In this document: positions 5,344 through 5,554 of the stretch, piece by piece | Layout: the number at the start of each line of letters is the position of its first letter | How positions within the stretch are numbered: position 1 is the stretch's first letter | Assembly (NCBI GenBank): GCA_964461265.1 | Contig: CAYWTS010000001.1 | Span: 161,025 to 225,024 of the forward strand | From: an uncultured Ignavibacteriales bacterium | Lineage (GTDB): Bacteria; Bacteroidota; Ignavibacteria; Tepidaquicellales; OLB5 | Length of the DNA stretch: 64,000 bases | Reading direction: 5' to 3' | Made by a program: the position numbers and the translations under genes | The notes under the pieces: model-generated | Told to the model about the DNA's origin: nothing | Databases searched by the model: none | Seen by the model: the letters and a program-made list of their open reading frames with translations, nothing else

Positions 5344-5395
5344 TGCCCCAGGAAGAACTCGAACCCCGAGCCAATTGATTAAGAGTCAACTGCTC
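5344..5395 (-). pseudogene. Degenerate 3' two-thirds copy of tRNA-Lys (D-stem 3' side to discriminator)
   Basis: Matches the corresponding part of the intact tRNA (5410-5461) except for 4 substitutions in and next to the T-arm. Confidence 0.9.
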
Positions 5396-5409
5396 CGCCT
5401 GCCTGCCGG

Positions 5410-5482
5410 TGCCCCAGGAAGGACTCGAACCCTCGGCCAATTGATTAAGAGTCAACTGCTCTACCAACTGAGCTACTGAGGC
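5410..5482 (-). tRNA. tRNA-Lys(CTT), intact; CCA not encoded
   Basis: GCCTCAGTAGCTCAGTTGGTAGAGCAGTTGACTCTTAATCAATTGGCCGAGGGTTCGAGTCCTTCCTGGGGCA gives a 7-bp acceptor stem, anticodon loop CTCTTAA and T-loop TTCGAGT. Confidence 0.96.
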
Positions 5483-5554
5483 AACGGCGGGCAGGTCTAC
5501 CAACTGAGCTACTGAGGCAACGGCGGGCAGGTCTACCAGCTGAGCTACAGTGGC
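5461..5554 (-). repeat. Tandem 36-bp repeat (tRNA 5' 22-mer plus 14-nt GC-rich arm) x2, then a third, diverged tRNA 5' 22-mer
   Basis: ctaccaactgagctactgaggcaacggcgggcaggt is exact at 5461-5496 and 5497-5532. 5533-5554 reads GCCACTGTAGCTCAGCTGGTAG on the minus strand. Confidence 0.95.

Follow-up and report, generated by a model that had tools for sequence, protein, structure and literature searches.

A tRNA-Lys(CTT) gene nested between palindromic arms within a decayed copy of the same gene in Ignavibacteria

Introduction

How does an intact tRNA gene come to lie inside a broken copy of itself? The question is raised by an array on the minus strand of a 64,000-nucleotide (nt) stretch of DNA from an uncultured Ignavibacteriales bacterium (contig CAYWTS010000001.1 of assembly GCA_964461265.1, positions 161,025 to 225,024; hereafter the window), in which a complete tRNA-Lys(CTT) gene sits between two complementary GC-rich arms and the arms in turn separate the 5' and 3' parts of a second, damaged tRNA-Lys(CTT). 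A preliminary description of the locus proposed that a palindrome had entered the D-arm of the older gene and that a full copy of the tRNA was later placed at the centre of the palindrome. We compared the locus with its counterparts in related lineages and found the nest to be real, unusual and recurrent in the clade; the descriptive explanation is well supported, and for the mechanism of its formation one account is favoured and no more than that. Our literature survey, incomplete in coverage and therefore weak as evidence of absence, turned up no account of a bacterial tRNA that lies inside its own gene.

Results and Discussion

Architecture of the Locus

Read 5' to 3' from 5554 to 5344 on the minus strand, the array comprises a tRNA 5' 22-mer, an arm L, an exact 22-mer, a second L, the tRNA-Lys(CTT), an arm L' and a tRNA 3' 52-mer (Table 1). 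All elements listed in the preliminary description were recovered in place when the sequence was re-read and analysed with ARAGORN, Rfam and repeat searches. Across the array, ARAGORN and Rfam called the inner gene only, which scored 71.7 bits against the Rfam tRNA family (RF00005; gathering score 29), and the 22-mer of the tRNA 5' end had three matches in the window compared with zero expected by chance. The linkers are indeed the two arms of a palindrome with one mismatch: CCTGCCCGCCG pairs with CGGCAGGCAGG at 10 of 11 positions, the exception being a single C.A. With at most one mismatch allowed, the arm core CCTGCCCGCCG occurred three times in the 64 kb, always at the array (twice on the minus strand and once as the complement), against an expectation of 0.15, and none of 100 shuffles reached three.

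The module that splits the D-arm after nt 22-23 is about 101 bp long and consists of a GC-rich arm, 2 nt, the complete tRNA-Lys(CTT), 1 nt and the complementary arm; the size of the D-arm insert is 101-137 nt. A common break point of the two outer fragments, as originally claimed, was confirmed near nt 22-23, although its exact place is ambiguous by 1-2 nt, G22 and A23 being assignable to either side. Two of the three changes in the outer 5' fragment disrupt acceptor-stem pairing, at pairs 4 and 6 (two of the seven acceptor pairs are mispaired), and the four differences in the outer 3' fragment leave the T stem with one mismatch and three G-U pairs. We infer that the inner tRNA-Lys(CTT) is the functional copy and that the outer halves are pseudogene fragments. 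In the predicted folds, the second copy of L, separated from tRNA position 1 by 2 nt, pairs with L'; in the minimum-free-energy fold, the first copy pairs instead with a hairpin arm at about 5305-5297. This hairpin lies 21 nt downstream of the 3' fragment, contains a third related arm, GACAGGCAGGTG (5306-5295), and is 79% complementary to arm L.

Table 1. Features of the nested tRNA-Lys(CTT) array in the window, in the order in which they are met on the minus strand
Feature	Position	Strand	Sequence or remark
Probable promoter region of the resident (old) tRNA gene	5585..5615	minus	TTGATA, 17-nt spacer, TATATT, overlapping TATATTTG
Outer 5' fragment (old tRNA-Lys nt 1-22)	5533..5554	minus	GCCACTGTAGCTCAGCTGGTAG; 3 mismatches to the inner 22-mer
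Arm L, copy 1	5519..5532	minus	ACCTGCCCGCCGTT; 14 nt
Middle 5' fragment	5497..5518	minus	exact copy of inner nt 1-22; forms a 36-bp tandem duplication with arm L
Arm L, copy 2	5483..5496	minus	ACCTGCCCGCCGTT; 5' side of the stem clamping the intact tRNA
Intact tRNA-Lys(CTT)	5410..5482	minus	ARAGORN; Rfam RF00005
Arm L'	5396..5409	minus	CCGGCAGGCAGGCG; complementary to L, begins 1 nt past the discriminator base
Outer 3' fragment (old gene nt 22/23-73)	5344..5395	minus	92% identity to the inner copy, 4 differences
Native 3' flank of the old gene	5323..5343	minus	CAAAACAAATAGCGAATTTGT; 19/21 positions as in the L117 flank
26-nt insertion relative to L117	5297..5322	minus	hairpin of the same family (TGCCTG caaatga CAGGCA; right arm CAGGCAGGTG)

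The middle 22-mer and its arm add a repeat within the nest. Positions 5460-5531 are made of two exact 36-nt units (5460-5495 and 5496-5531, 100% identical), reported by Tandem Repeats Finder with a period of 36 nt, 2.7 copies and 95% matches. The outer 22-mer diverges by 14% and the outer 3' piece by 8%, whereas the middle 22-mer and its L are exact, and a second L'-plus-3'-piece is absent downstream of the array. On the simplest reading of these sequences, the middle unit would be a recent 36-bp tandem duplication that arose by unequal crossover or slippage between the outer and inner 22-mers, 36 nt apart. A second level of nesting is ruled out by the exact 36-bp identity and the lack of a matching second 3' fragment. 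A two-level nest that uses the downstream hairpin arm was rejected as well: 35 nt, including native flank, lie between the 3' fragment and that arm, and a second 3' fragment is again missing. The copy number of the exact unit, two, is taken solely from short-read assemblies.

Support from Independent Assemblies

Exact 36-nt tandem units are difficult for k-mer assemblers and several Logan contigs terminate at the locus, as would be expected if the array were stutter, or a chimeric join of strain variants, made in short-read metagenome assembly. Two JGI metagenome contigs (samples 3300037501 and 3300043267) nevertheless carry the whole 591-nt intergenic region unchanged. The window may itself derive from one of them. 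The identity of the spacer in contigs of different samples means that the structure is not a one-off assembly product. A third dataset confirms the outer junction: a Logan contig (SRR12686701) agrees with the outer 22-mer and the arm, continues for the first 10 nt of the following 22-mer and then stops, as a k-mer assembler is expected to do at a repeat. An analogous nest of another species is present in two different assemblies (JGI and ENA; see below), and the outer pieces carry substitutions of their own that stutter could not create. We therefore regard an artefact as very improbable. Six short-read contigs, mostly from Logan (L001, L084, L085, L087, L088 and L090), terminate in or beside the tRNA-Lys locus; such ends fit repeats in several lineages, and nests may be under-sampled in assemblies. 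By breaking short-read assemblies, nests and hairpins of this kind can also mislead tRNA annotation in metagenome-assembled genomes (MAGs).

The Uninterrupted Gene in a Sister Lineage

The array is flanked by an SBP_bac_5 transporter gene (3469-5139, minus strand, downstream of the tRNA; the SBP gene below) and by glgB (5731-7704, plus strand). The closest GlgB, 84% identical, is encoded on the Logan contig L117, which comes from the same sample as contigs with a 91%-identical SBP (L085); these probably represent one organism. In L117, a conserved upstream block and TATATTTGT are followed by an uninterrupted tRNA-Lys(CTT) and the flank CAATACAAATAGTGAATTTGT, and neither L nor L' is present at the locus. 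In anchored alignments, the promoter and 5' part of the L117 gene match the outer 22-mer of the window together with the DNA upstream of it; the 3' end of this gene, with its flank, matches the outer 3' piece plus the following 21 nt. The L117 gene is identical to the inner tRNA of the window at 72 of 73 positions, and the lone difference, a C at position 16 (C16), is shared with the outer 22-mer of the window. Given the anchored alignments and the common C16, the outer pieces are the old resident gene; the suggestion that the outermost 22-mer derives from another tRNA can be dismissed, and its two acceptor-stem changes, like the four changes in the outer 3' piece, are decay. The native promoter and flank context and the uninterrupted L117 gene thus bear out the core of the preliminary description, an intact tRNA-Lys(CTT) between inverted-repeat arms that split an older copy of the same gene. 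Farther downstream, L117 lacks at the orthologous point the 26-nt insertion of the window, which carries TGCCTGcaaatgaCAGGCAGG (5322-5297).

Two other comparisons were set aside. An alignment of the whole spacer with MAFFT matched a 3' fragment downstream of the L117 gene to the outer 3' fragment of the window and was overturned by the flank-anchored alignments. Synteny around GlgB in GTDB genomes was uninformative, as the best relatives are 60-65% identical and have no tRNA beside GlgB.

The promoter region in Table 1 was the sole promoter-like site that a consensus scan found upstream of the whole array, and the 14 nt preceding the inner tRNA leave no room for such a site. Its TATATTTG motif has the Bacteroidota-type -7 form. 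The block CAATTGATAA...AAAATTTATATTTGTAT is conserved 5' of the uninterrupted L117 gene, and TATATTTGT is found upstream of the tRNA gene in L086, L087, L089, L092, L098 and L117. To judge from these motifs, 5585-5615 probably acts as the promoter of the array.

A Second Nest with the Same Geometry

Using the SBP gene, we recovered about 14 related lineages. One of them, the JGI contig L097, contains a second nest, which is exactly reproduced by the independent ENA assembly L114. Here a decayed 5' piece in its native upstream context, GTAGCAGCTCAGCTGGTA, is followed by ATCCTGCCTGATGACT, an intact tRNA-Lys(CTT), CTCAGCAGGCAGG and a strongly decayed 3' piece. Both nests have the order stem, 2 nt, tRNA 1-73, 1 nt, stem, with 11 of 12 arm positions paired in L097. 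Over its outer 8 nt, CCTGCC(Y)G / CAGGCAGG, the stem is equal in the two nests save for one C/T in arm L, and the inner 3-4 bp have changed on both strands with the pairing kept (CCG:CGG vs TGA:TCA). In the predicted folds of both modules, the L:L' helix closes an extended acceptor stem.

In the sister of L097, contig L115 (SBP 85% identical), the gene is uninterrupted; its acceptor stem is of the same lineage-specific type, and it has C16. There are thus two sister pairs, each with a nest on one side and an intact gene on the other, and in both the outer piece and the sister gene have C16 and the inner copy T16. This pattern is suggestive only, because position 16 also switches between the otherwise near-identical genes of L086 and L092. 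The recurrence of the architecture in a second lineage points to an undescribed remodelling of a tRNA gene by small palindromic repeats, with the function of the gene kept.

The second nest also bears on whether the outer halves might still form a tRNA, joined either in cis, with L, the tRNA and L' as an intron, or in trans through the L:L' helix, in which case the locus would give two tRNAs. Split, multi-intron and permuted tRNA genes are archaeal or algal and need a bulge-helix-bulge motif. The nest resembles the disrupted genes of archaea (the split genes of Nanoarchaeum, the non-canonical introns of Thermoproteales) and permuted genes in its mutually complementary GC-rich sequences of 12-14 nt and its non-canonical break near 22/23: a GC-rich 14-nt stretch follows the 5' piece and its complement precedes the 3' piece, as in split tRNA halves, and the halves of the window, when joined, are still recognised by ARAGORN as a tRNA-Lys. 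It differs in its bacterial host, as indicated by a small signal recognition particle (SRP) RNA of bacterial type in the window and by the Ignavibacteria relatives, in the decay of the halves and in having an intact copy between them. Both junctions fall at the same end of the L:L' helix, which leaves no bulge-helix-bulge motif, and staggered 3-nt bulges were found neither in the sequence nor in the folds. The outer 5' piece has the two mispaired acceptor pairs, and the L097 halves have decayed past recognition, with no ARAGORN call when joined. No tRNA splicing endonuclease was seen in the 64 kb. In bacteria, the only disrupted tRNA genes described contain group I introns in the anticodon loop (PMC4033280); the D-arm insert had no Rfam intron match even at an E-value of 10. 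Working halves are thus scarcely credible, a reading that is close to refuted.

The Hairpin Family of the Arms

The arms are not unique to the nest. They are the two halves of a palindromic hairpin repeat, CCTGCCYG...CAGGCAGG(CG), from a family found across the clade, CCTGCCTG-loop-CAGGCAGG, that also stands alone at other, non-orthologous sites of relatives. A CCTGCCTGccgCAGGCAGG hairpin lies between the 4HBT and SBP genes in L091, L092 and L104, and is missing from the same spacer, just 71 nt long, in L086 and L144. Directly after the SBP gene, L109 has CCTGCCTG(13 nt)CAGGCAGGCAGGCG, which includes the exact 12-mer GGCAGGCAGGCG of the window's L', and L144 has GCCTGCCTGaagCAGGCAGGC upstream of the tRNA promoter. 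Together with the hairpin beside the nest in the window, arms-only hairpins thus occupy one site next to the nest and three non-orthologous sites in relatives, and each is missing from the orthologous site of a close relative. None is followed by a run of T, for which reason we rejected a reading of the hairpins as terminators. On sequence grounds, we take the arms to be members of a clade-wide family of GC-rich palindromes that is prone to gain and loss.

Within the 64 kb, no further copies of the arms were found besides the adjacent hairpin. Of the remaining CAGGCAGG 8-mers in the window, three are coding and one is part of a short palindrome at 30266-30283, GCCTGCagCAGGC followed by AGG, in the spacer between two minus-strand genes. 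With its arm-like CCTG/CAGG motif, this palindrome may be another degenerate member of the family.

Searches for the nest in mobile DNA were negative. In viral contigs, the pattern of the junction between 5' piece and arm had 0 matches, and the pattern of an arm plus the tRNA start had 24, none of them a nest: most were tRNA arrays in which CCTGCC was the preceding T stem, and a few were chance matches. Phage and plasmid collections yielded ordinary tRNA-Lys matches only, the best phage match being a normal phage tRNA gene.

A larger structured segment was observed in L144. About 130 nt long, GC-rich and upstream of the tRNA promoter (approximately 1715-1850), it is closed by TTGCGAGGGAGTCCCGC / GCGGGGCTCCTCGCAA and includes two hairpins, one of CCTGCCTGaagCAGGCAGG and the other perfect over 14 bp (CGAAGCAATCTCAT...ATGAGATTGCTTCG). 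The segment could be a miniature inverted-repeat transposable element (MITE) or a small RNA.

Rearrangements of the Same Gene in Relatives

A plain tRNA-Lys(CTT) gene is found in L086, L092, L093, L095, L096, L100-L104, L112 and L144. In other relatives, the gene is accompanied by partial copies. L089 (2818-2889) and L090 (66-137) have, immediately 5' of the intact gene, exact tRNA nt -1 to 21 followed by 49 unrelated nt, which start with the imperfect palindrome TCCGTCAACTGATGGA; the break is 1 nt from that of the window nest. In L098 (20-140 and 167-278), the promoter and tRNA nt 1-27 are followed by a perfect hairpin, CCCCGATgtccATCGGGG, that replaces the anticodon arm, and by a decayed T arm; this pseudo-copy lies 147 nt upstream of the intact gene, and the two promoters are nearly identical. 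The related contig L087 starts within the same pseudo-copy (1-20). L117 itself has, 27 nt downstream of its intact gene, a tRNA-Lys 3' fragment that begins at nt 22 (146-85, minus strand), with CCCGCCtaaGGCGGG in place of the T loop and CATTTAA as the anticodon-loop region. Breaks at nt 21-23 recur in four lineages.

The two-step order of the preliminary description, with the palindrome first and the tRNA placed later, predicts a gene with only a palindrome in its D-arm. No such intermediate was present in the approximately 14 related lineages, and this part of the proposal found no support.

One relative shows a rearrangement of a different kind. In L091 (401-442), only nt 32-73 of tRNA-Lys(CTT) remain, from the anticodon loop onward, with native downstream context and unrelated DNA upstream, whereas the gene is intact in the conspecific contig L092 (414-487; SBP >99% identical). 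The L091 piece is the classical signature of an integrative element at tRNA-Lys(CTT), and the gene thus serves as an integration site in the clade. Integrative elements come with an integrase and leave one tRNA end duplicated, the crossover lying in the anticodon loop, the T loop or the 3' end. Could the nest be the relic of such an element, one that had its attachment site in the D-arm, carried a tRNA-Lys of its own and later shrank to its ends and the tRNA? As in attachment-site duplications, partial direct copies of the tRNA flank the inserted DNA and an intact gene is retained; the breaks at nt 21-23 are recurrent; and L' joined to L forms an inverted repeat around GA that resembles the core site of a recombinase. 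An element of the serine-recombinase type would have had a palindromic attP, L'-GA-L, with GA as its 2-nt crossover. In the nest, however, both tRNA ends are duplicated, the break falls within the D-arm, at nt 22/23, the insert is 101 bp with 14 nt between the repeats, and the neighbours are SBP_bac_5 and GlgB. A crossover in the D-arm is reportedly not among the integration sublocations in tRNA genes known to Williams in 2002 (Nucleic Acids Res 30:866). As the preliminary description had noted, no integrase is nearby: among the 44 scanned open reading frames (ORFs) of at least 110 aa in the 64-kb window, we found no integrase, transposase, recombinase, reverse transcriptase, Ro60 (TROVE) or RAYT (REP-associated tyrosine transposase). 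Just 14 nt of the supposed element would survive at either end, and in two lineages the trimming would have come to within 1-2 nt of the tRNA; the centre of the L'-L symmetry is offset from GA, and the arms match a dispersed family of short hairpins and not the unique ends of an element. We consider such a relic a rather improbable source of the nest.

The resident genes fall into two distinct types, with acceptor stems GCAC/GCAT... and GCC..., that are found at one and the same locus, 5' of the SBP gene. One set comprises L086, L087, L092-L096, L100, L103, L104 and L112, and the other the window, L089, L097, L101, L102, L115 and L117. The types are intermixed among lineages whose SBP proteins are 80-85% identical, which suggests repeated gene replacement.

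Origin of the Nest

Our preferred account, held tentatively and at somewhat less than even confidence, is that the nest is an inverted-repeat cassette of the hairpin family that carries a tRNA, resides in the D-arm of the resident gene and is transcribed from the old promoter, the halves being pseudogenes. We favour cassette insertion because the arms are a dispersed family and because the same precise geometry is found twice. The module would be a cargo-carrying member of the hairpin or inverted-repeat family, akin to a MITE or a mobile insertion cassette and mobilised in trans, that inserted into the very gene whose function it supplies. As the old gene's promoter is the only one, the locus would give a single precursor with the old 5' piece, L, the duplicate 5' piece and L, the tRNA, L' and the old 3' piece. 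The L:L' helix would lengthen the acceptor stem, the strands of the intact tRNA would pair with each other and not with the decoy halves, and the tRNA could then be freed by RNase P and 3' processing. The arrangement may have been locked in once the old halves had mutated, because recombination that joined an outer repeat to its diverged inner counterpart would leave the tRNA defective. The extra unit of 5' piece and L would have been added later, through the 36-bp duplication by slipped strands or unequal crossover.

Several points weigh against this account. A target-site duplication is unclear, at 0-2 nt: at most G or GA (nt 22-23) is common to both junctions in the window, and the L097 junctions have no clearly common bases. 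No transposase was found in the 64-kb window, nor, in this part of the genome, a second copy with the order arm, cargo, arm. The inner tRNAs are closer to the resident gene of their own sister (72/73 and 71/73) than to each other (68/73), and this likeness fits a local copy, or an old nest passed on by vertical descent, better than a cassette of fixed cargo that has been spreading recently. On present sequences, one origin followed by repeated loss is not separable from two gains of the nest. Nor need the hairpin family be mobile: it could be a motif, such as one that binds protein or affects RNA stability, that forms and decays where it stands, and the transcription and processing of the nest are themselves deduced from its sequence.

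The likeness of the inner tRNAs to the sisters' resident genes, near identity in both pairs, is what a local origin without transposition would leave behind. The resident gene would have been copied by replication template switching, or by duplication and deletion, around a hairpin, perhaps after a stalled fork or a break in a highly transcribed gene, with the GC-rich arms copied from a nearby or ectopic hairpin. The locus is prone to rearrangement, as seen from the 36-bp duplication and the partial copies in L089/L090, L098 and L117, its breaks recur at nt 21-23, and a hairpin arm with 79% complementarity to arm L lies 190 nt downstream. Yet several steps would be needed, among them two partial duplications with the same internal break and the placement of inverted arms within 1-2 nt of the tRNA ends; the outcome would have to arise or survive in two lineages with identical geometry, and L097 has no nearby hairpin to copy from. 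We judge a local origin possible, although on the unlikely side. Retro-insertion of a mature tRNA was rejected, as no CCA follows the inner copy (GCACCG in the window and GCACTC in L097).

A bolder form of cassette insertion, which we think unlikely, would make the arm-tRNA-arm module a self-replacing cassette: a non-autonomous mobile element of about 100 bp whose sole cargo is a functioning copy of its own target, the tRNA gene. By inserting into the D-arm, the element would kill the resident gene and substitute for it, and a host that lost the element would lose its tRNA-Lys(CTT), in effect an addiction strategy that would have struck at least twice in this Ignavibacteria clade. If mobile, the module would be the smallest known element to carry a replacement for the gene it disrupts, and would carry the principle of tRNA-targeting integrative elements over to a palindromic repeat of 100 bp; if not, the locus is a natural record of a single-copy tRNA gene surviving a split. 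It presents a copy nested in its own pseudogene, behind the old promoter and within a helix clamp of leader and trailer, and its relatives show intact, partly duplicated and nested states.

Comparison with Known Repeats

Nearest in kind to the nest are the repetitive extragenic palindromic (REP) sequences and their REPIN doublets, MITEs, mobile insertion cassettes and Rickettsia palindromic elements (RPEs). Like these, the arms are short, non-coding, GC-rich inverted repeats in an AT-rich genome (34.5% GC), vary in presence at several intergenic sites among close relatives and have one copy inside a structured-RNA gene. Terminal inverted repeats, as in MITEs and mobile insertion cassettes, are present in both modules (10/11 paired in the window and 11/12 in L097). 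Unlike in these repeats, the inverted repeat encloses a complete copy of the gene that it interrupts, the arms are only 8-12 nt long, and we found no clear target duplication and no RAYT, transposase or conserved GTAG head: the GTAG before arm L is supplied by the tRNA, and the standalone hairpins of L092, L109 and L144 have none. To our knowledge, no REP, MITE or RPE-type repeat carries a copy of the gene that it splits. The parallel with RPEs drawn in the preliminary description therefore holds as an analogy and goes no further. Yeast mitochondrial GC clusters are likewise tiny GC-rich palindromes that multiply within an AT-rich genome and in some cases lie within genes; they differ from the nest in belonging to another domain of life and in their unrelated sequence, and we know of none with a cargo gene.

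A weak Rfam match to YrlA, a Y RNA-like family, covered the 5' piece, L and the tRNA (5427-5527, minus strand; 19.3 bits, gathering score 69, E = 0.26). No ORF in the window has a TROVE domain, and the match most likely reflects tRNA-likeness only.

Genomic Surroundings

All of the 44 scanned ORFs are housekeeping genes, except for three without a Pfam match. The small SRP RNA is located at 15020-15118 (Rfam), and the nearest genomes are Ignavibacteria MAGs. Elsewhere in the window, 24282-24877 is an ORF-free stretch of 600 nt that has no Rfam match at gathering score and contains the GC-rich hairpins CCCGCCatctGGCGGG (24460-24475) and CTCCTCCCtttgtgagaaGGAGGGG (about 24515-24540); the arms of the CCCGCCatctGGCGGG hairpin match those of a hairpin within the L117 3' fragment.

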